Source of the DNA: Candidatus Staskawiczbacteria bacterium
Lineage (GTDB): Bacteria; Patescibacteriota; Minisyncoccia; Minisyncoccales; Staskawiczbacteraceae
NCBI GenBank assembly: GCA_026395215.1
Contig: JAPLZC010000009.1
Location: 8,711-72,710 of the forward strand
Reading direction: 5' to 3'
Length of the DNA: 64,000 nucleotides
Positions 7,325 through 55,433 of this stretch are shown piece by piece (position 1 is the stretch's first letter; the number at the start of each line of letters is the position of its first letter). The notes beneath the pieces are model-generated. The model was not told where the DNA came from and ran no database searches. It saw only the letters and a program-made list of their open reading frames with translations. The position numbers and the translations under genes are program-made.

Positions 7325-7356
7325 AAAAAACTCCGCTTCAAATGCGGAGTTTTTGT
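7325..7356 (+). terminator. Intrinsic terminator after fusA
   Basis: CTCCGC-ttcaaat-GCGGAG followed by a T-run. Confidence 0.7.
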
Positions 7357-7393
7357 TGCAAAAAAGCTTCGTCATTAGTAATAAGAGCAATAC

Positions 7394-7427
7394 ACGTACT
7401 TTTTGGCCACGTGGCAAAAAAGTACGT
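7394..7427. repeat. 34-nt palindrome, left copy (ACGTACTTTTTGGCCACGTGGCAAAAAAGTACGT)
   Basis: Near-perfect palindrome centred on CACGTG, with one arm mismatch. Second copy at 8053-8086. Confidence 0.9.
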
Positions 7428-7479
7428 GTTAGTAAAAATATGATATAATGGAAAAATATAATCATAATATATAAAAAGA

Positions 7480-8040
7480 ATGAGGGAAATTTTAGAGGAA
7501 ATATTGTGGAGTATATATTATCAAACCGAGGAGGCTCACATTGGCGGACGGGGCGATGCCAGATTTTTTATTTTGAACGATATTATAAAAGATATTCATG
7601 ATTATACGGGCAAATATTTAACATCTAGGCGGTTGGCCTCGGCTGTGGTGGACTTAAATAGGCAGAAGTTAATACAGAAAAAGAAGGACTATGCGGGAAC
7701 GGTTTTGGTTTCTTTGACTGAAAAGGGAATTTTGCGGGCAATAAATTATAAATTTAGACGGCTGGGCAATAAAAAAGAAAAATGGGATGGCAAATGGCGT
7801 ATGGTGGCTTTTGATATACCCCGAGAATGCGAGAAAGGTAGGAAAGCGCTTGTCTATAGGCTAAAAACCGGAGGATTTTATGAACTGCAAGAAAGTATAT
7901 TTTTATATCCCTATGATTGCAAAAACGAAATTGACGCATTAACAAACTTTTTCAAAATTAAAAAGTATGTCAGGTTTGGCCTTTTGGATTTTATTGAGGG
8001 TCAAGACGGCATCAAATTTAAATTCGGAATAAATTCCTAG
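7480..8040 (+). CDS. PaaX-family-like regulator (N-terminal wHTH-like region plus PaaX_C/Cas2-like fold)
   Basis: WDGKWRMVAFDIPRECEKGRKALVYRLKTGGFYELQESIFLYPYD matches the PaaX C-terminal / Cas2-like signature. Confidence 0.55.
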   Translation: MREILEEILWSIYYQTEEAHIGGRGDARFFILNDIIKDIHDYTGKYLTSRRLASAVVDLNRQKLIQKKKDYAGTVLVSLTEKGILRAINYKFRRLGNKKEKWDGKWRMVAFDIPRECEKGRKALVYRLKTGGFYELQESIFLYPYDCKNEIDALTNFFKIKKYVRFGLLDFIEGQDGIKFKFGINS

Positions 8041-8052
8041 TGAGCGAAATAC

Positions 8053-8086
8053 ACGTACTTTTTTGCCACGTGGCAAAAAAGTACGT
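8053..8086. repeat. 34-nt perfect palindrome, right copy (ACGTACTTTTTTGCCACGTGGCAAAAAAGTACGT)
   Basis: Perfect palindrome. Flanking bases (ATACACGT...TTAGTAA) are also shared with the left copy. Confidence 0.9.
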
Positions 8087-8167
8087 ATTAGTAATGTTTG
8101 TATATGGTTAGTTATTATGGTTGGTTTTTGTTGTTTTGGCGTAATTAGTTTATTTTTTGCAAAAAAA

Positions 8168-8205
8168 AGCACCGCGGTCTGAAGATTCAGACTCTGGCGC
8201 ATGAA
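8168..8205 (-). terminator. Intrinsic terminator of the minus-strand micro-ORF operon
   Basis: The reverse complement reads GCGCCAGAGTCTGAA-TC-TTCAGACCGCGGTGC followed by T8. Confidence 0.6.
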
Positions 8206-8211
8206 TATGTG

Positions 8212-8325
8212 CTAAACAGCTTTGTCGAGCTCCCTTAGGGTTCGCACTAACAGATGCACAAGCGAATTGGCGCGTCGCTTTCTTGGTTGTTTGCTTGTAG
8301 CACGCTTAAGATTCTTCCTTCTCAC
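8212..8325 (-). CDS. Micro-ORF E, 37 aa, Arg/Lys-rich (MRRKNLKRATSKQPRKRRANSLVHLLVRTLRELDKAV)
   Basis: GTG start overlaps the upstream stop (GTGA). GGAAGGAG SD sits 7 nt upstream. Below the ORF-track size cut-off; hand-translated. Confidence 0.4.
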   Translation of the reverse strand: MRRKNLKRATSKQPRKRRANSLVHLLVRTLRELDKAV

Positions 8326-8642
8326 GGTTTGCTCCTTCCATAGATTACATCGCCACCGAGCGTGTGCCTGCTACGCAGGCGTGGTTTATGCGGTTCGGGA
8401 ATTTCCCGAGTTCGTTCTCCTAGAGATACGAAAACGTAGCATGCTCTCGGCTCGGAGAAATAATAGCGTGCTGACCCGCCAGCGATGATTGTGGCGATGA
8501 TTGCTTCCTGCACACCATCTTTAAACATTTCGATTGGAATTTTCAGATTGCCAACCCTGGGATCATCTACTGTTTTCATGAGTGCGATTACTCTCTCATG
8601 AAATTCAGGCTTCACATCATCAAATTCAAGATCCAGTTTCAC
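8322..8642 (-). CDS. Micro-ORF D, hypothetical 106 aa
   Basis: GTG start in a GTGA overlap with ORF C. AAAGGAG SD. G+C-rich codons. Confidence 0.5.
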   Translation of the reverse strand: MKLDLEFDDVKPEFHERVIALMKTVDDPRVGNLKIPIEMFKDGVQEAIIATIIAGGSARYYFSEPRACYVFVSLGERTREIPEPHKPRLRSRHTLGGDVIYGRSKP

Positions 8643-8827
8643 GGTTTACTCCTTTCGTTTGAACATGCATGAGGTTTCCAGTGGCTGGCGGCCAAGCAAC
8701 CGGCGGCGAATGCTATATACATGGCGATTAAGCCGTAACTAGTGAAGCACATTAAGGCTGTTCCTACAGCGAGAAGAAAAGCAACCGTACCCCACTTCAT
8801 CAACGCCCATTTTTGTTTGTCATTCAT
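8639..8827 (-). CDS. Micro-ORF C, 62 aa small membrane protein (two hydrophobic helices)
   Basis: Start placed at ATG 8827-8825 (MNDKQKWALMKWGTVAFLLAVG...). This gives an ATGA overlap with ORF B and an AAAGGAG SD. The track start at 8869 lacks an SD. Confidence 0.5.
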   Translation of the reverse strand: MNDKQKWALMKWGTVAFLLAVGTALMCFTSYGLIAMYIAFAAGCLAASHWKPHACSNERSKP

Positions 8828-8952
8828 GGCTTGCTCCTTTTCGGTTTCCGTGTTCGGCGATAACTGCACGGAGGTCCATTACATTCGCGTCCGGTATTGC
8901 TACCCATGTTTAGACATCGTTCATGTCGGTTGGTACATTTCCACTTTTTCAT
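8824..8952 (-). CDS. Micro-ORF B, 42 aa, four-Cys basic peptide (MKKWKCTNRHERCLNMGSNTGRECNGPPCSYRRTRKPKRSKP)
   Basis: ATGA overlaps at both ends. AAAGGAG SD. Hand-translated. Confidence 0.4.
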   Translation of the reverse strand: MKKWKCTNRHERCLNMGSNTGRECNGPPCSYRRTRKPKRSKP

Positions 8953-9122
8953 GGCTTGCTCCTTTTCGGTTTGTCGGCTTTCCAGAAAGTTGCCTCGTTA
9001 GTATTATCGAGGTCGGTTTGACCGGCACTGTGAGCATTCACAATTGTCCATCCTCGCCGTTTTCGTTGGCTGATAGAACGATCCATGGATTGGTGGTTTG
9101 GGAATTTTTTGATTACTATCAC
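8949..9122 (-). CDS. Micro-ORF A, 57 aa hypothetical
   Basis: GTG start at 9122-9120 preceded by AAGAAAGGA. Ends in the shared ...KRSKP-TGA junction. Hand-translated. Confidence 0.35.
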   Translation of the reverse strand: MIVIKKFPNHQSMDRSISQRKRRGWTIVNAHSAGQTDLDNTNEATFWKADKPKRSKP

Positions 9123-9167
9123 GGCTTGGTCCTTTCTTAAAAGATTGTCAGAGGGCTGTCATCTGGC

Positions 9168-9196
9168 TTGATTGCTAGATTAATTTGTAGTATAAT
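9168..9196 (+). promoter_or_regulatory. Plus-strand promoter TTGATT-N17-TATAAT (towards tuf)
   Basis: TTGATT at 9168-9173 and TATAAT at 9191-9196. Confidence 0.4.
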
Positions 9197-9216
9197 CGAA
9201 TTATTAAATAAATCAA
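9189..9216 (-). promoter_or_regulatory. Minus-strand promoter TTGATT-N16-TATACT (towards the micro-ORF operon)
   Basis: Reverse complement of AATCAA (9211-9216) and AGTATA (9189-9194). Its -10 box overlaps the -10 box of the plus-strand promoter. Confidence 0.4.
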
Positions 9217-9339
9217 GGCGTAAACACTTGACTTATAAAAATAAATATAATAAGATAGTATTATCGTAAAAAAATATTAAAATAATAAAAAGTAATTAAA
9301 GCTTTTGTGCCAGGTTATGGCGCCAAGCAAAAAAATAGA

Positions 9340-10536
9340 ATGGCAACAGAAAAATTTGAGAGGTCTAAGCCTCACGTAAATATTGGTTCTATTGGTCACG
9401 TTGATCATGGAAAAACCACATTGTCCGCCGCAGTTATGAAAGTCGCAAAATTGCGCGGTTTTAAGTCTTCAGATAAAAACGTTGATCAAATTGACGCTTC
9501 GCCTGAGGAAAAAGCAAGAGGCGTGACGATTTCTATTACTCACTTGGAGTTTGAAACAGCAAAAAGGCACTATGCATGGATTGATTGCCCAGGACACGCT
9601 GACTACATTAAAAACATGATTACGGGAGCCGCTCAAATGGACGGTGGAGTTTTGGTAGTTTCTGCACCAGACGGACCTATGCCTCAAACAAAAGAGCACA
9701 TTTTGTTGGCCAGACAAGTTGGTTTGCCAAGCTTGGTTGTATTTATGAACAAATGCGATATGGTTGACGACCCAGAGATTTTGGAATTGGTTGAATCAGA
9801 AATTAGAGAATTATTAAAGAAAAACGGATACCCAGGAGACGAAACACCAATCATTAGAGGTTCTGCAACAAAAGCGCTAGAAGCTACTTCAATAGATGAT
9901 GCTGCATGCAAACCAATTGTTGAATTGATGGATGCAGTTGATAACTATATCCCAGAACCTGCAAGAGAATTGGATAAACCATTCTCTATGGCAATTGAAG
10001 ATGTATTCTCAATTGAAGGAAGAGGAACAGTTGCAACAGGAAGAATTTCAAGAGGAGTTATCAAACCAAATGATGATGTTGAAATTGTTGGTATTAGACC
10101 AACAGCAAAAACAGTTGTTGTTTCCGTTGAAATGTTCCAAAAATCACTTGATCAAGGAAATGCCGGAGATAACGTTGGAATTTTGTTAAGAGGTTTGAAG
10201 AAAGAAGATATAGAAAGAGGACAAGTTATCTGCAAACCAGGTTCAATTAACCCTCATACAGAATTTGAAGCTGAGGTTTACGTTTTGTCCAAGGATGAAG
10301 GTGGAAGACATACTCCATTTTTCACAGGATACAAACCACAGTTATATATTGGAACATCTGATATTACAGGAGACGTAACTTTACCAGTTGGAACAGAAAT
10401 GGTTATGCCTGGAGATACAGCATCTTTCACAGTTAAATTAATTGCTCCTATTGCTTTGGAAGAAAAAGGTAAATTTGCAATTAGAGAAGGAGGAAAAACA
10501 GTCGGATCAGGAGTTGTAACAAAGATAATCAAGTAA
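9340..10536 (+). CDS. tuf: Elongation factor Tu
   Basis: [22 protein letters not shown]. Start moved to ATG 9340 ([16 protein letters not shown]). Confidence 0.97.
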
Positions 10537-23478: not shown

Positions 23479-23550
23479 TAACTGCCTTGATGGTTCAAGG
23501 TGAGTTCTTTTCCAATTTCGATTTTGTTAACAACGAAAAGGAGACCGACC

Positions 23551-26500
23551 ATGATGACGAAGCTGTATCGCAATGACGGCGTGGTGGAAGTGTGTTTTAA
23601 TATCGAGAGTCCTAGACAGTTGACGGATGAAGAACGGCAGAAGATTGCTTGGCTTATTGCTAGGCAGTATGCTGGTTTGGACGCAAAATCGGCGCCGGCG
23701 CATGCGTTTAACGAATACGTGGAGATTGGTCCTCGGCTTCAGGTTGAGACACCTTTTTCCAGCAATGCTGTGGGTATCTGTCGGAATATTGGGACCAATG
23801 TGGTTACGCGCATGGAAGAGTCGCGTTTGTATCCGATTCGGGTGCAAGGACGCGGTTTGACTCGCGAAGAACTGGTTGCTATACATCTGGATAAAATGAC
23901 TCAAGCGGTCTATCCATTGTGTGGCATTGAAAGTTTTGACTCAAAGCACGAAGTAGTGCCGGTCAGGATGATTCCGGTTCTTACAGAAGGCGCAGAAGCC
24001 ATTCGACGCTACAACAACGAGATGGGTCTTGGTATGGACGAAGTGGATATCGCATTCTGTGTGAATCTCTTTGGTCAGAAGTATCGGCGTAATCCCACGG
24101 ATGTGGAATTGGTTCAACTCGGCAATATGAATAGTGAGCATTGCCGGCACAAATTGTGGAAGGGAAGAATTGTGATTGGTGGTGTGGTAATGCAAGAAAC
24201 ACTGTTGGATTTGGTGCGCGCGCCTTTGCGGCTTCGCGGACAATGCAACAGTATCCTGGCGTTCAATGATAATTCCGGATGTTTGGCCGGACCGGAAATT
24301 TGGGGCTTTGTGCCCGAGAATCCGGGTGATCCGTCAAAAATGATTCGGGTCAGAATTACTCAATACATCACGGCAACCGCGGAAACTCACAATCATCCCA
24401 CAGCTATTTGCCCCTTTCCTGGGGCGGCGACAAAAGATGGTGGTGAGATCCGCGATGAAAGCGCTACGGGGAGTGGTTCACGTGCGGGAATGGGATTTCA
24501 CGGACAATGTGTGGGAAATTTGCATTTGCCTGGTCATGAAATTCCGGGTGAGACGCTTGGCAAGGGAGAAATTCCTAAGTATGCTTCAGCTTTGAAAATC
24601 TTGATTGAAGGCACAAATGGTGCGTCGCACTATTGTAACGCTTTTGGCAGACCACTTGGTGGTGGTTTCTGTCGGACGTTTGATCAAATAGTCGCCGGAG
24701 AGAGACGTGGCTTTCACAAGCCAATTTTCTACGGTGGCGGTGTTGCGACAATTGATGCTCGGCATGTGATTAAAGGAGAAGCTGAAGTCGGTATGATGGT
24801 AATACGTTGGGGTGGCCCCGGCTTTGAGATTGGCCTTGGTGGCGGAGCAGCCTCCAGTTTGGGGCAGGGTGACAATACGGAAAGTTTGGATTATAAGTCC
24901 GTTCAACGGGGCAACCCGGAAATGGAAAACCGAGCTAACCGTGTAATTACTACCTGTACTGATTTGGGAGATAATAATCCCATTGTTGCAATCCATGATC
25001 AAGGTGCCGGTGGTCCGAGTAATGTGCTTACAGAGCTGGTTGAGGCACTAGGCGCGTTGATTGATGCTGACCAGATTACTTTGGGCGATAAAACAATGGC
25101 GTACCTGGCAATCTGGAGCGCAGAGTTCCAGGAAGGTTACGGCGCTCTTGTTCGTAGAGAAAATCTGTGGTTATTCCGAAAAATCTGTCAGCGCGAACGC
25201 GTGAATTGCGAGGTGGTGGGCGAGATTACTGGTGATCATCGGATTAAGGTAATCAGCTCCAAAACCAATGCGGTTCTCGTGGACTTGGATTTGCGGGATG
25301 TGTTAACGCATGCCCCGCAGAAGACCTTTGAATTCCAGCGGGTTGAACGCAAGTTTGATCCGCCAGTGATTCCGACCGATAAGACAGTTGAACAGTTGAT
25401 TGAGATGGTTTTTAGACTGCCATCGGTTGGGTCAAAGGGATTCCTTACGCGAAAGATTGACCGGTCAGTGACGGGTAGGGTTGCGTGCCAGCCCTGTTGC
25501 GGACCAACACAAATTCCGTGTGCTGATGTAGGCGTCCATCTGGACGGTTATTTCGGAGATTCAGGAGCGGCCGGAGCGCTTGGTGAACAGCCGAATGTGA
25601 TGTTCGTGAACTCGCAAGCGGGAGCGCGAATGTCACTTGGTGAAATGTTGACCAATTTGTGCGCGGCCAAAATTTCCGGCTTTCCAGACATCAAGACGCG
25701 CATTAATCAGATGGGTGCATTCAAATTGCCGGGCGAGGGCGCGCGACTGTGGGATGCCAATGTTGCTTTGCGCGACATGATTGTTGCTATGGGTGGAGCT
25801 GAACCAGACGGCGGAAAGGATTCGTCGTCTATGGTTGGCCTTGCCGGTGGCGAGAAAGTAAAAGCGCCCAGCGAAATGGTGGTGCTGGGTTATGCTCCGG
25901 TGCCAGATTGCAATAAGGTGCTCACGCCGGACTTCAAATATCCGGGACAAAGTCTCATTGGTTTCATTGATTTGGGGCATGGCAAAAACCGTATGGGCGG
26001 TTCGGCCTTGCTTCAGGCTTTGGGACAAGTGGGCGATGTCATTCCGGACGTGGATGATCCACTAGAATTGCGCCGTGCGTTTGACGCTGTACAGGAACTA
26101 ATTGGCCGTGGTCTCATTTCCGCTTATCACGATCGTAGTGATGGCGGACTGGTGGCGACTTTGGCCGAGATGTGCTTGTCGGCAAATTGCGGAGCAATGG
26201 TGGAGTTGAAAAGATGGGAAAATGTTGTTTCTGGCCTCTTTAACCAGGAACTGGGGATGGTGTTTGAGTATTCAGAGGAGAATGAACCTTTGATTGATAT
26301 GGTTTTAAGACAAGATTTTGGGATAGAGTGGTCCCGAATCGGTCAGACGACCATGTTAAAACAGTTGCTTATCATTACAAGACCGCATTCTCAAAGTAGT
26401 CCTAATGTCCGAATTCCACTCGGCACGCTTCGTCCTTGGTGGGAGGCCACAAGCACTCGCCTGGAAATGGAGCAGGCCAATCCGGAAACGGTGAGACAAG

Positions 26501-27393
26501 AGAGCGAGACGCACAAAAACCCGCAGGCGATTTCATATCATCTGACTTTCGTGCCTCAAGAAACAGCGCCGGAAGAATTGGTGTGGGATAATCGTCCAAA
26601 AGTTGCCATTCTTCGTGAAGAGGGAACAAACGGCGAGCGGGAAATGCAAGCGGCATTTGAGACAGCTGGTTGCGAAGTATGGGATGTTTGTATGCAGGAT
26701 TTGCTGGACGGCAAAATTTCTCTGGACTTGTTCCAGGGTCTGGTGGCCGCCGGCGGATTTTCATATATGGATGTCTTTGAGAGCGGAAAAGGTTGGGCGG
26801 CAGGAATACTGTTTAACCCGACTTTGCGGGAAATGTTTGATCGGTTTTACCACCGGTCTGACACTTTTTCGTTGGGCGTCTGCAATGGCGCCCAGCTTCT
26901 GCCTCTCATCCGGCGGGTACCTTTCAAGGACATGCCGGAAGAAGAGCAATCGAGGTTTGTGGAAAATACTTCTCGCCGGTTTGAGTCGCGGTGGTCGCTC
27001 GTGAAAATCCTTCCGAGTCCATCGATATTTTTTACTGGTATGGAAGGCTCGGTGCTTGGTGTTCATGTGGATCATGGGGAAGGTAGGATGATCTTCCCTG
27101 ATCGGACAGTTGAGGTAAGAGTACAAAGAGGTCAGCAAATTCCTATGGCGTTTGTTGATCCTGAACACCGCCTGACCGAACAGTATCCGTACAATCCGAA
27201 TGGGTCGCCAATGGGATTCTGCGCTATGTGCACGCCAGATGGGCGACACACGGCAATGATGCCTCATCCCGAACGGGCGTTTCGAAAGTTGCAGTGGCAC
27301 TATTTGCCCGAATCGTGCAAACGAGATTGGCCGGTGTCACCGTGGCTAAAGATGTTCCAGAACGCCCGCAAGTGGTGTTTAAAAAATAAGTAG
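23551..27393 (+). CDS. purL: Phosphoribosylformylglycinamidine (FGAM) synthase, single-chain large type
   Basis: NSEHCRHK, ETHNHPTAICPFPGAATKDGGEIRDE, C-terminal GATase GVCNGAQLL...MMPHPER. AAAGGAG SD before ATG 23551. G+C-rich codons. Confidence 0.9.
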   Translation: MMTKLYRNDGVVEVCFNIESPRQLTDEERQKIAWLIARQYAGLDAKSAPAHAFNEYVEIGPRLQVETPFSSNAVGICRNIGTNVVTRMEESRLYPIRVQGRGLTREELVAIHLDKMTQAVYPLCGIESFDSKHEVVPVRMIPVLTEGAEAIRRYNNEMGLGMDEVDIAFCVNLFGQKYRRNPTDVELVQLGNMNSEHCRHKLWKGRIVIGGVVMQETLLDLVRAPLRLRGQCNSILAFNDNSGCLAGPEIWGFVPENPGDPSKMIRVRITQYITATAETHNHPTAICPFPGAATKDGGEIRDESATGSGSRAGMGFHGQCVGNLHLPGHEIPGETLGKGEIPKYASALKILIEGTNGASHYCNAFGRPLGGGFCRTFDQIVAGERRGFHKPIFYGGGVATIDARHVIKGEAEVGMMVIRWGGPGFEIGLGGGAASSLGQGDNTESLDYKSVQRGNPEMENRANRVITTCTDLGDNNPIVAIHDQGAGGPSNVLTELVEALGALIDADQITLGDKTMAYLAIWSAEFQEGYGALVRRENLWLFRKICQRERVNCEVVGEITGDHRIKVISSKTNAVLVDLDLRDVLTHAPQKTFEFQRVERKFDPPVIPTDKTVEQLIEMVFRLPSVGSKGFLTRKIDRSVTGRVACQPCCGPTQIPCADVGVHLDGYFGDSGAAGALGEQPNVMFVNSQAGARMSLGEMLTNLCAAKISGFPDIKTRINQMGAFKLPGEGARLWDANVALRDMIVAMGGAEPDGGKDSSSMVGLAGGEKVKAPSEMVVLGYAPVPDCNKVLTPDFKYPGQSLIGFIDLGHGKNRMGGSALLQALGQVGDVIPDVDDPLELRRAFDAVQELIGRGLISAYHDRSDGGLVATLAEMCLSANCGAMVELKRWENVVSGLFNQELGMVFEYSEENEPLIDMVLRQDFGIEWSRIGQTTMLKQLLIITRPHSQSSPNVRIPLGTLRPWWEATSTRLEMEQANPETVRQESETHKNPQAISYHLTFVPQETAPEELVWDNRPKVAILREEGTNGEREMQAAFETAGCEVWDVCMQDLLDGKISLDLFQGLVAAGGFSYMDVFESGKGWAAGILFNPTLREMFDRFYHRSDTFSLGVCNGAQLLPLIRRVPFKDMPEEEQSRFVENTSRRFESRWSLVKILPSPSIFFTGMEGSVLGVHVDHGEGRMIFPDRTVEVRVQRGQQIPMAFVDPEHRLTEQYPYNPNGSPMGFCAMCTPDGRHTAMMPHPERAFRKLQWHYLPESCKRDWPVSPWLKMFQNARKWCLKNK

Positions 27394-35659: not shown

Positions 35660-35992
35660 ATGATAAGTAACAAACGCATTGTTGTGTACTTTTTTGTACT
35701 GTTAATTGCGGTCTGGTTTTTTAAGATTACAATCAATGATGGCAACAGCATGGCTCCAACTTTGTTTAGTGGGCAGGTTTGTCTGGTGGTGAAGTGTGTG
35801 GAACCCTTGCCAGGAGATATTGTTTACGCTTACGATAATGAAGGCGTGGGAGTGTGTAAGAGGTTGGCGTGGTACACCAAAAACGGAGAGATGTTTCTTA
35901 TTGGTGATAATGCCAAAAATAGCCTTGATAGCCGACATCTTGGGCCGGTGCCCATGTCAGCCTATATAGGCAAAGTGGCGTTTTGTCCTTAG
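35660..35992 (+). CDS. Minimal S26-family (signal-peptidase-I-like) serine peptidase, 110 aa
   Basis: N-terminal TM. GNSMAPTL (catalytic Ser box), CKRL (Lys box), GDNAKNSLDSRHLGPV. AAGGAG SD. Confidence 0.65.
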   Translation: MISNKRIVVYFFVLLIAVWFFKITINDGNSMAPTLFSGQVCLVVKCVEPLPGDIVYAYDNEGVGVCKRLAWYTKNGEMFLIGDNAKNSLDSRHLGPVPMSAYIGKVAFCP

Positions 35993-35994
35993 TC

Positions 35995-36018
35995 GCAGAG
36001 GTTTGTCCTCTGCTTTTT
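35995..36018 (+). terminator. Intrinsic terminator
   Basis: GCAGAGG-tttgt-CCTCTGC followed by T5. Confidence 0.7.
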
Positions 36019-36040
36019 ATTGAACCTCACTCAATAAGGT

Positions 36041-36146
36041 TTGACATTTTTGATAAAATTGGTAATGTTATATTGCAACTTGAAAAATAGTTTCGAATAG
36101 TTCGGAAATTTTCCAGGTGAGTATTCTTTTTAAAAGGAGAAAGTTC
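36041..36146 (+). promoter_or_regulatory. Promoter-leader repeat, copy A (TTGACA...GTTATATT, leader hairpin, SD)
   Basis: The first roughly 50 nt are nearly identical to copy B at 36401-36504. Confidence 0.55.
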
Positions 36147-36362
36147 ATGAGCAAGAAAGCTAAGAGGGAAGATCCAAAGGCGAGAGCCTATCTCGAGAGT
36201 CTTTATCGCCTCGCAAAGACCGGGAGAAGCATAAAGAAGAGATTGAAATTCATGAAGTCGCGCAAGAATGGGAATGTCCGTATCAGCCATGTGAACACTC
36301 CAGCGGAAGGGCTTGCTATTCTGGAAGTTGCTGAAATTCACGACATCACAGACTATTGTTAG
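36147..36362 (+). CDS. Hypothetical basic 71-aa protein
   Basis: AAAAGGAG SD 7 nt before ATG 36147. The track start at 36117 lies inside the leader. Confidence 0.5.
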   Translation: MSKKAKREDPKARAYLESLYRLAKTGRSIKKRLKFMKSRKNGNVRISHVNTPAEGLAILEVAEIHDITDYC

Positions 36363-36366
36363 TCCA

Positions 36367-36398
36367 AAGGATAAGTCATCGCACTTCATCCTTTTTTT
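36367..36398 (+). terminator. Intrinsic terminator
   Basis: AAGGATAAGT...ACTTCATCCTT imperfect stem followed by T7. Confidence 0.55.
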
Positions 36399-36400
36399 AT

Positions 36401-36504
36401 TTGACAATTTTAGTAAAATTGATAAGGTTATATTGCACCTTGAAAAATAACTCCGAACATCTCGGAACTTTTTTTTGGTGTGGTGAAGAACCAAGGAGAT
36501 AAAA
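36401..36504 (+). promoter_or_regulatory. Promoter-leader repeat, copy B
   Basis: TTGACA at 36401-36406, exactly 360 nt after copy A. Leader hairpin TCCGA-acatc-TCGGA followed by T8. AAGGAG SD. Confidence 0.55.
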
Positions 36505-37638
36505 ATGAAAAGTATGACATACGATGGAGTTGGCGTTGATTACGACGCAATGGATCCATTCAAACGCATGGCGCAACTGGCCGGCAGGGAAACCGCTGGC
36601 GAACTGTCTCGCCACGGATTTTCTGAAGTTGAGTGGAGTCGTGGTGAGAGTTGTTACCTCGTGGAAACGCCATTTGGCTACATCGGTTTTGTCGTTGAAG
36701 GTCTTGGCACCAAAAGCCTGGTCGCCGATGCCTTACTCGAACTGGCTATCAAGATGAAATCGTTCAACGGCACAACCTACTACAACAAAGTGGCGCAGTG
36801 CAACGCTGCGATGGCGTTCAACGATATCATCACGCTTGGGGTGCGTCCGTTTGCCTATGGGCAATATCTTGCTGTAGGAGAATCCAGTTGGTTTGACAAT
36901 GAAGTGCGTTGTCGTGAACTGGTTGAAGGCACAAAGTTTGCTTGCAAACTCGCTCGGTGTTCTTGGGGCGGCGGTGAAACGCCAACCCTCAAGGGCATCG
37001 TTGTTCCTGGCACAGCAGATCTGGCCGGAGCAACCGTCGGATTTGCTCGTAAAGATCAATTGATTAACCCTGCCAATATTAGGCCGGGCGATGCGATTAT
37101 TTTTGTCGAAAGTTCTGGAATTCATGCCAATGGTTTAACCTTGGCAAGACGAATCGCTGACAAGCTTCCGGAGGGATATCTGACAAAACTTTCCGATGGT
37201 CGGACCTACGGCGAAACACTTCTCGACCCTACTGAAATATACGTCGGACTGGTTGCAGACTGTCAGGATAATGGGGTGGATATCCACTACGCAGTCAACA
37301 TCACCGGCCATGGCTGGCGCAAGCTCATGCGGGCTACACAGCCCTTTACCTACGTCATCGAGACGTTGCCCAAACAGCTTCCCATTTTCGACTTCATCCA
37401 AGAGCACGGACCGGTCGACGACAGGGAAGCTTACGGCAATCTCAATATGGGTGCGGGCTTCGCGCTCTACGTTCCGGCAGACGATGTTGCCAAGGTTTTG
37501 GCTATCGCCAACGTCAACATGTCGGCAGACTTCGACAGTGTTTTCCTTGCCGGCTATATCGAGCAAAGCGACACCAAGAAAGTGGTCATCAGGCCAAAGG
37601 GTCTGGAATATCTCGGCTCAACGCTGGGCGTTCGCTGA
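36505..37638 (+). CDS. purM: PurM-family protein (phosphoribosylformylglycinamidine cyclo-ligase / AIR synthase-like)
   Basis: Collinear with PurM: GVGVDYDAMDPFKR, EGLGTKS, AMAFNDIITLGVRP, SWGGGETP, SSGIHANGLTLARR, LLDPTEIYV, NITGHGW, NMGAGFALYV. Confidence 0.75.
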   Translation: MKSMTYDGVGVDYDAMDPFKRMAQLAGRETAGELSRHGFSEVEWSRGESCYLVETPFGYIGFVVEGLGTKSLVADALLELAIKMKSFNGTTYYNKVAQCNAAMAFNDIITLGVRPFAYGQYLAVGESSWFDNEVRCRELVEGTKFACKLARCSWGGGETPTLKGIVVPGTADLAGATVGFARKDQLINPANIRPGDAIIFVESSGIHANGLTLARRIADKLPEGYLTKLSDGRTYGETLLDPTEIYVGLVADCQDNGVDIHYAVNITGHGWRKLMRATQPFTYVIETLPKQLPIFDFIQEHGPVDDREAYGNLNMGAGFALYVPADDVAKVLAIANVNMSADFDSVFLAGYIEQSDTKKVVIRPKGLEYLGSTLGVR

Positions 37639-37792: not shown

Positions 37793-38476
37793 ATGTTAAA
37801 AGAACTTATAGACCAGTTTTATTTGGATAATCAGAGGAATAGGGAACAGACTCGGTTTTATATTACGGATGCGGGGAAGTGTCCGCGGGCGGTTTTTTTT
37901 AAGTTTAAAAATGCGCCAAAGGAGCCAATGGATGCGCGAATTATGCGGATTTTTGAGCACGGGGAAAACATTCACAGGTCTATTTTTAATATTTTATATA
38001 GGTTGCGACTAGGAGTTGTCACCGAGGTTTCTATACCGTCACAGGAGATAATTTCCGGCAGGGCAGACGCCATTTTATGTATGGATAACCAAAACTATGT
38101 GCTGGATATTAAAAGCATGAATAGCATGATTTTTAGGAAGCTTGAGTCGCCTAAGGAAGAAAATATTTTTCAAATCCAGCTTTATCTGCACTACTTTAAT
38201 ATAAAAAAAGGAATATTACTTTACATAGATAAAGATAGGCAGGAAATGAAAGAATTTTTTGTAGATTATGACGAGGCGCTTTGCAAGGGGCTTCTGGACA
38301 AGTTCTACGTCCTGAAAGATCAAGTGGAAAAAAATATTATACCTGCAAGACTGGAAGACTTCCCGCGCAATTGGCAGTGTAATTATTGCCAGTTTAAAGA
38401 TATTTGCAAAATAGCCAATGGAGACACTCTAAACTGGGATGATTTCAAACAAAAAGTATTGACCATAAGTCAATAA
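37793..38476 (+). CDS. Cas4/RecB-like PD-(D/E)XK nuclease with a four-Cys cluster, stand-alone
   Basis: N-terminal Cys (DAGKCPRAVFF), GRADAIL...LDIKS...QLYLHY nuclease core, C-terminal WQCNYCQFKDIC. Confidence 0.65.
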   Translation: MLKELIDQFYLDNQRNREQTRFYITDAGKCPRAVFFKFKNAPKEPMDARIMRIFEHGENIHRSIFNILYRLRLGVVTEVSIPSQEIISGRADAILCMDNQNYVLDIKSMNSMIFRKLESPKEENIFQIQLYLHYFNIKKGILLYIDKDRQEMKEFFVDYDEALCKGLLDKFYVLKDQVEKNIIPARLEDFPRNWQCNYCQFKDICKIANGDTLNWDDFKQKVLTISQ

Positions 38477-52962: not shown

Positions 52963-53013
52963 TTTACCAGACAGCACTAACGTTGTCGCGGTTCATTGAA
53001 AAGGAGAAAAGCA

Positions 53014-53940
53014 ATGATAGATCTTTCGGTAGAAGTAGCAGGAATCAGAATGCAGAATCCGATTATGCCGGCTTCCGGCACCTTCGGCTATGGCGAAGAT
53101 TACATCGACCTAGTTGATAATTCAAAACTGGGTGCGCTGGTTGGTAAAGGCACAACCGCCCTGAATCGCGAAGGAAATGAGCAACCGCGAACATGGCCGG
53201 TTCCTGGCGGGATGATAAATTTTATCGGTTTACAAAACCCCGGCGTTCATACAGTCGTAAACGACAAAGTTCCATACATGTATAAGTTCGGCGTTCCGAT
53301 TATTATTAACGCTTCTGGTAGTACGGTTGAGGAATATGCTACGGTTGTGGCAGTTTTGAATACTTCTTCGTTGATTGACGGCATTGAGGTAAATATTTCG
53401 TGTCCAAATGTAAAAGAGGGCGGAGTTGCTTTTGGTCAAGATCCTGTGTTGGCAGGGGAAGTTGCTCGCGCTGTCCGCAAAGAAACAAAACTTCCATTGA
53501 TATTTAAACTGACTCCAAACGTGGCGAGCGTTATCCCTGTTGCCAGAGCAGTTATTGAAGCTGGAGCCGACGCCATTTCTTTGGTCAACACATTCAAGGC
53601 AAGGGCCAGAATTAGGAGTGGTTTGTACAAAGGCCAATGGATTGAAGGCGGTTATTCTGGACAGGGGATTATGCCAATCGCGTTGAAAATGGTTTCCGAT
53701 CTATACAAAGCTAAAATCGGAGTTCCTATAATTGGCATGGGTGGAATTTCCTCGCTAGAGGACGTCCTAGATTTTTTGGAAAGTGGAGCTGATGCTGTCC
53801 AAATTGGCACGGCAACTTTCATTGTTCCATCCACAATGACCGACATTATCCGTGACCTCGGATTATATATTGAACAAACGGGATGTCAAAGTCTCAAAGA
53901 ATGGCGGGAAAAAGGTTTCCCAATGCCCAAAGAAAAATGA
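53014..53940 (+). CDS. pyrD: Dihydroorotate dehydrogenase, class 1 (catalytic Cys)
   Basis: NPIMPASGTFGYG, GIEVNISCPNVKEGG, KLTPNV, SLVNT, GGI...D. Start moved to ATG 53014 behind an AAGGAG SD. Confidence 0.85.
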   Translation: MIDLSVEVAGIRMQNPIMPASGTFGYGEDYIDLVDNSKLGALVGKGTTALNREGNEQPRTWPVPGGMINFIGLQNPGVHTVVNDKVPYMYKFGVPIIINASGSTVEEYATVVAVLNTSSLIDGIEVNISCPNVKEGGVAFGQDPVLAGEVARAVRKETKLPLIFKLTPNVASVIPVARAVIEAGADAISLVNTFKARARIRSGLYKGQWIEGGYSGQGIMPIALKMVSDLYKAKIGVPIIGMGGISSLEDVLDFLESGADAVQIGTATFIVPSTMTDIIRDLGLYIEQTGCQSLKEWREKGFPMPKEK

Positions 53941-53953
53941 GATTCATAGGTTG

Positions 53954-53981
53954 GTTCTTGCTATTGCAAGAACTTTTTTTT
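53954..53981 (+). terminator. Intrinsic terminator after pyrD
   Basis: GTTCTTGC-tatt-GCAAGAAC followed by T8. Confidence 0.75.
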
Positions 53982-54086
53982 GTGGTAATCTGAATACGAG
54001 TTAGTTACAGTCGCGACGTGTTGTCGGGGCGCTAACGGGTTCGTTGAAATCATTATTGGTGGAAAGTTAAGAGAGGAAAACAGCAA

Positions 54087-54548
54087 ATGTCAACAACAGC
54101 AAAAGTCCCACAGATTGATAATAGTGGCGCACCTATTTGGTGGCATAAACACGGATCAAAAATGCGACTGAAGGTTTTTAGTCATTCGGCAAATATTTTT
54201 TTGGTAATCCAGGGGAGTGCCGCCGAGCTGAAGGTAGGTAAGCTCGACAACCGCTGGATTGTTGCCTGGAAAATAACCCAAAGCCCGACAGAAAATTCTT
54301 CCGGAAGGATTATCATGAACGACCATAGCCTTGCTCAGGCGTTCGGCTTGGATGACGATGGATTGTTTAGCAGTTGTTGGTTGATCGAACGATACGGCGG
54401 AACAGTTGCTCATCAAGGGCAGTTTATCCGTTGGGATAAATTTTTGAACATTCCTTGTCCGGGAACCGGCCACGACGGCGACCTCAATGTGTCCATTTAT
54501 TTGGACGAGAAGATAAAGGAAGCAGTCGGCAAACTTCTCGGCCGATAA
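54087..54548 (+). CDS. Hypothetical protein (153 aa), G+C-rich
   Basis: AGAGAGGAAAA SD-like region. Own terminator. No motif recognised. Confidence 0.5.
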   Translation: MSTTAKVPQIDNSGAPIWWHKHGSKMRLKVFSHSANIFLVIQGSAAELKVGKLDNRWIVAWKITQSPTENSSGRIIMNDHSLAQAFGLDDDGLFSSCWLIERYGGTVAHQGQFIRWDKFLNIPCPGTGHDGDLNVSIYLDEKIKEAVGKLLGR

Positions 54549-54565
54549 CAACACCAGTGATTCAT

Positions 54566-54598
54566 GTCCGGCGACCCTCGCGTCCCGGATTTTTTTTG
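54566..54598 (+). terminator. Intrinsic terminator
   Basis: CCGGCGAC...GTCCCGG imperfect stem followed by T8. Confidence 0.55.
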
Positions 54599-54600
54599 CG

Positions 54601-54629
54601 TTGACACAAAATTATTTTATTGGTAAGGT
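54601..54629 (+). promoter_or_regulatory. pyrF cassette promoter TTGACA-N17-TAAGGT
   Basis: TTGACA at 54601-54606. -10 candidate at 54624-54629. Confidence 0.4.
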
Positions 54630-54695
54630 AATTTAAGTCAGTTGTAGCGTCGGCATTTTGTCTGCGCGCTGATGTGGGTAGTTCATTGAGAAAGG

Positions 54696-55433
54696 TTGGT
54701 TACAGTGAAAAATGCAAAAGACATGATATGGGTAGCGGTTGACGTTTCAACCCAGGCAGAAGCGATTGGTCAAATCAAAACCCTGGTTGACAACGGCATA
54801 AGAAGAATCAAGTTGGGGCTTGAGCTTCTTTCAACAGGGGACCGGGAAAGTGTGATTCACTTCGCACAGCTATCCGGGTGCGAGGTTTTTTACGACGGGA
54901 AGTTTGACGACATTCCCCACACGGTTGGCGCGGCGGCAAAAGTTGTCGCTAGTCGTGGAGTGGCAATGTTCAACGTTCATGCTTCGGCTGGGCGTAAAGC
55001 CATGGAAGCGGCGGTAGCGAACAAGGGTCAAAGCAATGTTCTTGTTGTGACCCTGCTCACTTCTCTGAGCAAAGAAGACCTCCGCGATTTGGGATATCCG
55101 GAATCCATAAGCAAAGACGTTGTCGTACGAGCGATGGCGTCCTGCGCTGCTGAGTGTAAGGTAGATGGTATCATCTGCTCGGCTCAGGAAGCCCAGTTGG
55201 TGCGATCTGTTATGCCACAAGGCATGATTGTCACGCCGGCGATTCGGCCTGTTTGGGCAGTAGTCGGCGATCAGAAGCGTCCGACAACTCCGACTGATGC
55301 AATCAAGGCTGGCGCAACGGATTTGGTTATTGGACGACCCATCACAAATCCTCCGCCGGAAATCGGTTCTCCTACAGAAGCTCTGAAGCGAATCGTTGAC
55401 GAAATCGCCGAGGCTATGCAAGTTACACCGTAA
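54696..55433 (+). CDS. pyrF: Orotidine-5'-phosphate decarboxylase
   Basis: VAVD, FYDGKFDDIPHTV (DxKxxDIPxT box), LVIGRPIT. Start is ambiguous: TTG 54696, GTG 54705 or ATG 54723. Confidence 0.8.
   Translation: MVTVKNAKDMIWVAVDVSTQAEAIGQIKTLVDNGIRRIKLGLELLSTGDRESVIHFAQLSGCEVFYDGKFDDIPHTVGAAAKVVASRGVAMFNVHASAGRKAMEAAVANKGQSNVLVVTLLTSLSKEDLRDLGYPESISKDVVVRAMASCAAECKVDGIICSAQEAQLVRSVMPQGMIVTPAIRPVWAVVGDQKRPTTPTDAIKAGATDLVIGRPITNPPPEIGSPTEALKRIVDEIAEAMQVTP

Follow-up and report, generated by a model that had tools for sequence, protein, structure and literature searches.

In many phage and ribosomal-protein operons, consecutive genes are translationally coupled by termination and re-initiation. 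The stop codon of one gene overlaps the start codon of the next by four bases, and a Shine-Dalgarno (SD) sequence lies 6-7 nucleotides (nt) upstream, still within the 3' end of the gene before it. Integron cassette arrays consist of small promoterless open reading frames (ORFs) that share an orientation and follow a fixed promoter, and their content varies between strains; in phage mosaicism and replacement islands unrelated ORFs are exchanged between conserved flanks. Here we describe a block of five minus-strand micro-ORFs that lies between fusA and tuf in a 64-kb stretch of DNA (the window) and shares features with each of these systems. The host is a Candidatus Staskawiczbacteria metagenome-assembled genome of the candidate phyla radiation (CPR)/Parcubacteria. 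Translational coupling is already known as a kind of feature, as are genes without homologues and variable islets. What is distinctive here is a reiterated junction, G+C-rich (GC-rich) cargo that is SD-dependent in a CPR host that is SD-less, a fixed slot in the str/S10 region and the association with a palindrome-flanked PaaX/Cas2-like gene.

We consider it rather probable that the block, in its structure and genetics, is an accessory operon, translationally coupled and specific to the strain, which occupies a hypervariable cargo slot of Staskawiczbacteria. This interpretation is carried by direct observations: the anatomy of the block, the non-random tiling of its ORFs, its foreign composition, the SD contrast with the host, the variability of the slot and a start-codon-anchored swap in relatives.

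Five overlapping micro-ORFs with a reiterated junction

The original prediction, made from the sequence alone, described five minus-strand ORFs of 57, 42, 62, 106 and 37 amino acids (aa), coupled through ATGA or GTGA overlaps and equipped with their own promoter and terminator. All five are present at 8212-9122 exactly as claimed, and the overlap of stop and start codons was seen at all four internal junctions (J1-J4). The block comprises the following features.

9216-9189, minus strand: sigma-70-like promoter from a promoter scan, TTGATT at 9216-9211, N16, TATACT at 9194-9189
9168-9196, plus strand: divergent promoter, TTGATT-N17-TATAAT, with TATAAT at 9191-9196 overlapping the minus-strand -10 box
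9123-9182, minus strand: predicted 5' untranslated region, ending in the head junction AAAGGACCAAGCC followed by GTGA, with AGGA at 9133-9130
9122-8949, minus strand: ORF1, GTG start, 57 aa, isoelectric point (pI) 10.7, RRGWTIV motif, ends KPKRSKP
8952-8824, minus strand: ORF2, ATG start, 42 aa, pI 10.7, Cys at 6, 13, 24 and 29, ends KPKRSKP
8827-8639, minus strand: ORF3, ATG start, 62 aa, two hydrophobic transmembrane-like spans, tail HACSNERSKP
8642-8322, minus strand: ORF4, GTG start, 106 aa, TREIPEP motif, ends GRSKP
8325-8212, minus strand: ORF5, GTG start, 37 aa, 13 of 37 residues Arg/Lys, pI 12.0, TAA stop
9133-9119, 8963-8949, 8838-8824, 8653-8639 and 8336-8322, minus strand: copies of the junction (A)AGGAG[C/T]AA[A/G]CC[A/G]TGA
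8161-8200, minus strand: operon terminator, hairpin at 8169-8200, then U8 at 8161-8168

The product features that had been predicted were all recovered: ORF1-4 share the RSKP tail, ORF2 is a basic peptide with four cysteines, ORF3 has two hydrophobic spans and ORF5 has a pI of 12.0. The promoter scan recovered the promoter-like TTGATT-N16-TATACT and the overlap of its -10 box with the divergent one; the transcription start itself was placed from the sequence. The strong hairpin-T8 terminator was likewise confirmed, with an 81-nt stretch folding at -22.1 kcal/mol (z = -2.2); an internal loop had hidden it from a simple terminator scan. ORF3, which the automatic ORF list runs up to a GTG at 8869, was called as a gene by the Logan gene caller and forms a singleton cluster in the protein collection. 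ORF4 is NCBI MCX6720555.1 (locus tag NTW11_02010), a hypothetical protein.

Nearly the same sequence had been said to be reused at every junction, and the counts bear this out. The degenerate junction RGGASYAARCCRTGA matches five times in the window, always within the block and always on the minus strand, against an expectation of 0.07, and none of 100 shuffles reached five. The five copies lie within 1 kb and have even their spacer in common. Two copies are of the subtype GCAAGCC-ATGA and two of the subtype (T/C)AAACC-GTGA, while the head copy is a hybrid. A sharp-edged exact direct repeat of 25 nt (8823-8847 and 8948-8972) brackets ORF2. Every ORF is preceded by an SD sequence, which takes the form GGAG-N6-ATG/GTG at J1-J4 and AGGA-N7-GTG at the head. 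The sequence AGG AGC AAG CCA TGA thus does three things at once: it encodes R-S-K-P-stop, contains the SD sequence and overlaps the next start codon. Known coupled polycistrons share the four-base overlap and the SD sequence inside the preceding gene. They differ from this block, in which one junction including its spacer is repeated five times in 1 kb, two junction copies are identical over 25 nt and the surrounding host genes are SD-less. Two other ideas about the five units were considered and rejected. A tandem duplication is at odds with the lack of similarity between units outside the junctions, and a -1/+1 frameshift fusion with the lack of a slippery site and the proper start codon at each junction.

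A further likeness to coupled polycistrons lies in the recurrence of the block's 16-mer junction and RSKP tail among viruses. The exact 16-mer AAGGAGCAAGCCATGA links unrelated gene pairs in at least 120 IMG/VR contigs, and in these viral loci (L003-L122) the upstream ORFs, up to 351 aa long, often end in RSKP. Its recurrence at unrelated gene pairs suggests that the tail is a by-product of a generally good coupling sequence. An SD sequence within the last codons is a recurrent solution among these viral gene pairs. As a marker of related elements the 16-mer was rejected, being too generic, and the junction motif was not found in 1.4 Mb of related loci. One viral contig of 57% GC (L068, IMGVR_UViG_3300044799_000158) contains at 7757-7783 a stretch of 27 nt identical to J1/J2, GGAAACCGAAAAGGAGCAAGCCATGAA. 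There the upstream ORF ends in RKPKRSKP and stop with an ATGA overlap, and the flanking ORFs are unrelated to those of the block. Strong constraint may have produced this match by chance, or the match may go back to a phage-like gene pool.

The start-to-start spacings of 170, 125, 185 and 317 nt are all 2 mod 3, as ATGA-type tiling exactly demands. When the interiors were shuffled, the four ORFs individually remained open in 6%, 13%, 6% and 0.2% of trials, and all four were open together in none of 20,000 trials. The fraction of purines at the first codon position is 0.56-0.66 in the minus-strand frames, like that of real window genes.

The composition of the block is unlike that of its surroundings. 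The window has a background of ~36% GC; GC is 0.45-0.53 across 8200-9100 compared to 0.29-0.40 in the flanks, and at third codon positions (GC3) it is 0.42-0.51 in the micro-ORFs compared to 0.26-0.29 in tuf and fusA. An SD sequence (GGAG, GAGG or AGGA at functional distance) precedes about one of 47 low-GC window genes, the leaders of which are A/T-rich instead, compared to all five micro-ORFs. The contrast in GC3 and SD usage suggests that the block comes from, or behaves like, another gene pool than the host core. Three further genes, with starts at 35660, 36505 and 54087, also have SD sequences and lie in GC-rich islands elsewhere in the window. These islands, of 44-52% GC, lie at 23500-27393, 35660-37638 and 52996-55433 and encode a full-length purL/formylglycinamide ribonucleotide amidotransferase, a purM-like aminoimidazole ribonucleotide synthase beside an S26 signal peptidase, pyrD and pyrF. 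This nucleotide-biosynthesis content is unusual for a CPR genome and was probably acquired horizontally. At 37793-38476 is a 227-aa ORF with weak matches to Cas4/PD-(D/E)XK nucleases (E ~1e-4).

A cargo slot between fusA and tuf

The block had been described as splitting fusA from tuf. It does lie between them, but not alone: a 186-aa PaaX/Cas2-like gene (7480-8040) and two palindromes, which the original prediction omitted, share the gap. The interval is made up of the fusA terminator, a palindrome, the PaaX-like gene, a second palindrome, the GC-rich block, an AT-rich divergent-promoter region and tuf, in this order.

7307: end of fusA, followed by a bidirectional terminator at 7326-7354
7392-7429: upstream palindrome copy, 38 nt, one mismatch
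7480-8040, plus strand: PaaX/Cas2-like winged-helix gene, 186 aa, Pfam PaaX_M E = 1.9e-16, convergent with the operon
8053-8086: downstream palindrome copy, perfect, 34 nt, ACGTACTTTTTTGCCACGTGGCAAAAAAGTACGT, left border of the variable slot
9340: ATG, most likely start of tuf

The listed ORF starts of fusA (TTG 5136) and tuf (GTG 9307) are probably too far upstream, as the conserved N-termini indicate ATG 5229 and ATG 9340, respectively. In family searches that included PADLOC, the PaaX-like protein gave weak Cas2 matches (E = 7e-4). No recombinase domain was found among the scanned ORFs, the neighbours being fusA, the PaaX-like gene, tuf and ribosomal-protein genes.

Searching with the PaaX-like protein brought up 67 loci from genomes and 70 from metagenomes. 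Those syntenic with the window are L124 (identical to L192), L190, L193, L194 (truncated) and L195. Their EF-G is 84-87% identical and their EF-Tu ~88% identical to the window's, and the palindrome core is identical in all five. The PaaX-like gene is a conserved neighbour outside the cargo, with 67-75% identity in the syntenic and closest loci. The slot itself extends from the palindrome to the tuf promoter region, and its cargo sequence differs in each relative. One question raised by the original prediction was whether relatives preserve the minus-strand frames or the plus-strand ORFs opposite them. They preserve neither, as the whole block is replaced. What had not been foreseen is that the replacement always consists of intact minus-strand small ORFs. 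The block is thus the cargo part of a larger conserved arrangement that is present in related genomes with different cargo.

The cargo of the relatives is GC-rich and consists of SD-led, minus-strand small ORFs, mostly DUF4177-like, with an own terminator beside the palindrome. L124/L192 has ORFs of 114, 88 and 72 (and 52) aa with overlapping ends, at 45-52% GC in L124. L190 has one 69-aa ORF behind GGAGG-N7-ATG, L193 has one ORF of ~62 aa, and L195 has a DUF4177-like ORF that runs off the contig. The right side of the slot is conserved and consists of the minus-strand promoter TTGAyT-N16/17-TATACT and the tuf promoter TTGACT-N17-TAAGAT. In L124 and L193 the -10 core GTATAAT/TATACT and the minus-strand -35 box (TTGACT) are kept despite the other cargo, and the equivalent of the head junction is AGGAGAAATGCC followed by GTG or TTG. 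Two features are common to the window and L195 only: the cargo terminator (82% identity over 44 nt) and an identical 17-mer within ORF4, GGTTCGGGAATTTCCCG.

A comparison of L124 (5280-6420) with L193 (540-1010) caught the turnover of the slot at close range. The two are near-identical strains, with flank identities of 99.7% (681 nt) and 94% (210 nt). Between them, the first DUF4177-like ORF has been exchanged, the difference starting exactly at the start codon after the shared AGGAGAAATGCC. The swap ends ~30 nt before the resident stop codon, so that the old 3' end (...TDIPDSRR and stop) persists in L124 as a non-coding remnant. The two also differ by a 490-nt insertion or deletion with two further ORFs. 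The swap and the 490-nt difference suggest that the slot is a hypervariable cargo site whose evolution proceeds through recombination at the boundaries of genes.

In this respect the slot resembles phage mosaicism and replacement islands, with unrelated ORFs exchanged inside conserved flanks, a breakpoint at the SD/start codon and a 25-nt repeat that looks like a recombination joint. It differs in having no phage context, the locus being in the str/S10 region of a CPR chromosome, and here the exchange mechanism is a deduction.

Genes of the PaaX-like type also occur elsewhere. In ~40 Parcubacteria loci (L123-L259) such a gene lies between copies of a perfect palindrome of 20-54 nt, built of T5-6, a GC-rich core and A5-6. 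Several paralogues are present per genome, and the core is specific to the paralogue or lineage (e.g. GCCACGTGGC, GGCTCGAGCC, CACGTGGCGTG and GCCTCGAGGC). Copies sit between housekeeping operons, such as rpoC and ftsK, fusA and tuf, thrS and dnaE, or map and tpiA. These palindromes might serve as operators or mark where a small mobile unit ends; a search of the literature on palindrome-flanked PaaX-like genes found none. GC-rich genes without homologues often adjoin the PaaX-like genes on either side (L123-L170 and L190-L259), and many of them encode small proteins that look like membrane, lipoprotein or secreted proteins. The GC peak beside the PaaX-like gene exceeds 80% of random positions of the same locus in 43% of loci, compared to 20% expected. 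The association of PaaX-like genes with GC-rich neighbours is suggestive and not universal.

Homology searches and the DUF4177 family

The original prediction could assign the block to no described system, and this was borne out: searches of Pfam (E <= 1), PHROGs, PADLOC and NCBIfam returned no family for ORF1-5. ORF4 was searched most thoroughly. A word-indexed search of 5.8 billion protein clusters returned only ORF4 itself, and HMMER, run exhaustively against 1.84 billion representatives, recovered ORF4 together with two repeat proteins. These two, a low-complexity 1123-aa protein and a beta-propeller repeat protein, were rejected as spurious, having scores summed over multiple stretches. 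A concatenated search with ORF1, 2, 3 and 5 gave no match, but ORF3, which is present in the collection, was not recovered either, so that the negative for these four ORFs is weaker than that for ORF4. Negatives of the word-indexed search need caution for very short ORFs. PDB sequence searches, including those with ORF2 and ORF5, gave no match.

In the relatives, the slot proteins belong to a single small family, made up of the 114-aa and 88-aa proteins of L124, the 69-aa protein of L190, those of L195 and L193 and a 101-aa protein of a further locus, L197. Common to them are a conserved G-W and, at the C-terminus, F-x-(K/E)-R-(D/E)-(I/V)-P-E-P, and three of seven family members match Pfam DUF4177 (PF13783), with a best E of 4.7e-6. 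In L197 the DUF4177-like gene is divergent from the PaaX-like gene rather than convergent. Upstream of it in that locus are a GC-rich, FISUMP-like 197-aa ORF (104-697) and a second, different palindrome at 755-793, of the TTTTTCACTCGAGTGAAAAA type.

Two ORFs of the block may be related to this family. ORF1 aligned over its full length with the family hidden Markov model (HMM) at 8.7 bits, a weak match that one of 2000 shuffles reached, and hhalign gave P = 0.0034. Its RRGWTIV and ATFWKAD are in register with the family. It is also the first gene behind the same promoter, with a head junction, AGGA...GCC followed by GTG, similar to that of the relatives. For ORF4, the Smith-Waterman score against the 69-aa protein of L190 was 38 over 49 residues, which 11 of 2000 shuffles reached, and hhalign against the slot family gave P = 0.035, with TREIPEP as the common motif. 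ORF2, ORF3 and ORF5 gave no signal against the slot family. DUF4177 is a beta-alpha-beta-beta domain of about 60 aa that has a conserved G-W ahead of strand 2 and ends in hydrophobic-F-K/E-R. In size, position, GW motif and predicted element order ORF1 bears a weak likeness to DUF4177 proteins, as does ORF4 in its C-terminal RE[IV]PEP, and the first or only slot gene of the relatives is DUF4177-like. ORF1 and ORF4 both fall under the Pfam threshold, and ORF2, ORF3 and ORF5 have no counterpart. We treat the relationship of ORF1 and ORF4 to DUF4177 as a lead and not as established. To our knowledge DUF4177 has no accepted function. In the literature, one DUF4177 protein, PEG 446, was reported as bacteriocin-like (PMC11322243), and the Bacillus subtilis member YjzH was found in the RNA-binding proteome (bioRxiv 10.1101/2025.03.21.644579). 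Genes of the family have been described in a halovirus (PMC6210493) and in integrative conjugative elements (PMC8895235).

A probable coupled accessory operon and its alternatives

We infer the transcription of the operon, its coupling and the spread of its junctions from sequence, as follows. The host-type promoter at 9216-9189 would give rise to one minus-strand mRNA of ~1 kb ending at the hairpin-U8 terminator (8200-8161), on which translation of ORF1 would be initiated from AGGA-N7-GTG. At the internal junctions, a ribosome terminating at TGA would re-initiate on the overlapping ATG or GTG, and the AAGGAG 6 nt upstream, inside the R-S-K-P codons of the preceding ORF, would hold the terminating ribosome. 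The output would be five small proteins in fixed proportion: one weakly DUF4177-like, one basic with four cysteines, one two-span membrane protein, one soluble protein of 106 aa and one that is Arg/Lys-rich. The SD dependence suggests cargo from, or adapted like that of, a different gene pool than the SD-less host. The junction may have been propagated within the operon by duplication or recombination, yielding two subtypes, one of them exact over 25 nt, and the cargo of the slot would turn over by recombination at gene boundaries.

Several points weigh against this interpretation. None of the five ORFs has a homologue, so purifying selection cannot be demonstrated. The link of ORF1 and ORF4 to DUF4177 is weak (P ~0.001-0.03 before correction for multiple testing), both being below the Pfam thresholds for the family (E <= 1). 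Single-sequence AlphaFold2 models were uninformative, with a predicted local distance difference test (pLDDT) score of 55 for ORF1, the model of which had no secondary structure, and of 45 for ORF4, although the latter showed beta-alpha-beta-beta at residues 31-73. By exact look-ups of EF-Tu, S10, S7 and the PaaX-like protein, the organism was found in two samples only, and no strain variants were seen. The 3' end of 16S rRNA was looked for among the fetched loci as a check of the anti-SD sequence, and none was present. Finally, any suggestion of function draws on analogy and on a single report of a bacteriocin-like DUF4177 protein (PMC11322243).

As for that function, the five products might be a strain-variable set of small proteins for antagonism and immunity or for defence; this is a tentative guess in which we place little confidence, and the greater part of the probability goes to another physiological role. 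The guess comes from the hypervariability of the slot, the combination of cationic and Cys-containing peptides with a two-span membrane protein and the PEG 446 report, all of which are reminiscent of bacteriocin/immunity loci. Unlike at such loci, no transporter (in the fusA-tuf interval), modification enzyme or known immunity family was found, and inspection by eye revealed no class II bacteriocin leader motifs. The block is also unlike toxin-antitoxin and anti-phage defence systems, as ORF1-5 have no match in PADLOC, Pfam or NCBIfam.

The accessory operon has to be weighed against a neutral foreign relic, that is, a recent capture from a GC-richer, SD-using donor that has not yet decayed and is functionless here, its ORFs being open only for want of time since the transfer. 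The five ORFs without homologues, a composition and SD usage unlike the host's, the absence of the block from all relatives compared and the fast turnover of the slot are all compatible with such a relic. It is nevertheless unlikely. The block fits exactly into the space from a promoter that is conserved in relatives to a terminator that L195 shares, which suggests integration into a transcription unit of the host. Intact small ORFs fill the slot in every relative, and five perfect coupling junctions with 300 stop-free sense codons argue for maintenance.

A more far-reaching version of the accessory operon is a dedicated cassette-capture locus, at which the fusA-tuf slot and similar PaaX-adjacent Parcubacteria sites would use SD-stop-start junctions as recombination joints. 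Downstream of a fixed host promoter, foreign micro-genes would be exchanged, added and piled up at gene boundaries by an integron-like device that has neither integrase nor attC and is possibly helped by the Cas2-like DNA-binding neighbour. The five-fold junction and the 25-nt repeat around ORF2 would then be footprints of successive insertions. The slot is like an integron cassette array in its promoterless small ORFs of one orientation, fixed promoter and strain-variable content, and the exchange in relatives begins at a gene boundary. It is unlike one in that no IntI integrase or attC was found, the junctions carry no inverted repeats, neighbouring genes share 4 nt instead of being separated, and what repeats is a ribosome-binding junction of 15-25 nt. 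We regard a capture locus of this kind as quite unlikely.

The origin first proposed for the block was a phage- or plasmid-derived module with holin-, toxin- or regulator-like content. A mobile element would then have left behind, for instance, a holin/lysis, toxin-antitoxin or superinfection-exclusion cassette. Tiny overlapping genes with strong SD sequences are typical of phage early and lysis regions. ORF3, with 62 aa, two spans and a charged C-terminus, is holin-like in a feature that is non-specific. The AAGGAGCAAGCCATGA junctions of IMG/VR contigs with their RSKP tails, the 27 nt shared with L068 including the RKPKRSKP end and the presence of DUF4177 in a halovirus and integrative conjugative elements (PMC6210493, PMC8895235) point in the same direction. 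However, the holin-, toxin- or regulator-like content found no match to any ORF in PHROGs, Pfam, PADLOC or NCBIfam. DNA and protein searches of 50,697 phage records, 72,556 plasmid records and IMG/VR returned nothing beyond the junction itself, and nothing was returned from IMG/VR with ORF4 or with the DUF4177-like protein of L124. No integrase, endolysin or other lysin gene, att-like repeat or other mobile-element gene was seen near the block, and a slot that is filled in all relatives is a better fit to a resident variable locus than to an insertion scar. Of the self-contained five-ORF operon with its own promoter and terminator, the anatomy and the foreign composition have stood up, whereas the mobile origin has not and now appears improbable.

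It is very improbable that the block is a structured non-coding RNA or antisense regulator with AAGGAGCAAGCC as a protein- or ribosome-binding element. Such RNAs classically stand out as GC-rich islands in AT-rich genomes, and the motif occurs five-fold. Yet Rfam gave nothing within the block, neither at gathering cutoffs nor at E <= 10, and shuffled sequences reach folding energies as good as those of either half of the putative transcript (z = -0.71 and -0.29). The motif copies lie at ORF boundaries in the required reading-frame phase, at irregular spacings of 125-317 nt that are unlike those of sponge RNAs. The plus-strand ORFs opposite the block, 8222-8488 (88 aa) and 8742-9140 (132 aa), are hardly credible as real genes. 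Their frames are long and open, but of the kind expected as shadows opposite a GC-rich coding strand. They lack SD sequences, have first-position purines of 0.45 and 0.50, respectively, gave nothing above noise in Pfam, PHROGs, PADLOC or NCBIfam and no homologues when searched as a concatenate, and are conserved in no relative. An assembly chimera or binning artefact, with foreign DNA joined at the palindrome, would explain the foreign composition and the short-read contigs that end there (8057-8060), but is extremely doubtful because two independent Logan assemblies reproduce 8057-9677, with the block joined to tuf, at 100% identity, the architecture recurs in four related genomes with a GC-rich block at the corresponding position, and the terminator is shared with L195.

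CPR/Patescibacteria have tiny genomes that are thought to be largely static. If the block is indeed a coupled accessory operon in a variable slot, a CPR genome keeps a fast-turning accessory slot amid the most conserved gene region of its chromosome, str/S10. The combination of GC content and SD usage would then be a simple signature for recently acquired or specially translated genes in SD-less genomes, and DUF4177 and the multi-copy family of palindrome-flanked PaaX/Cas2-like genes would be tied to strain-level variation. As a conjecture, the five micro-proteins may be candidates for strain-specific interaction or competition in an episymbiotic lineage.

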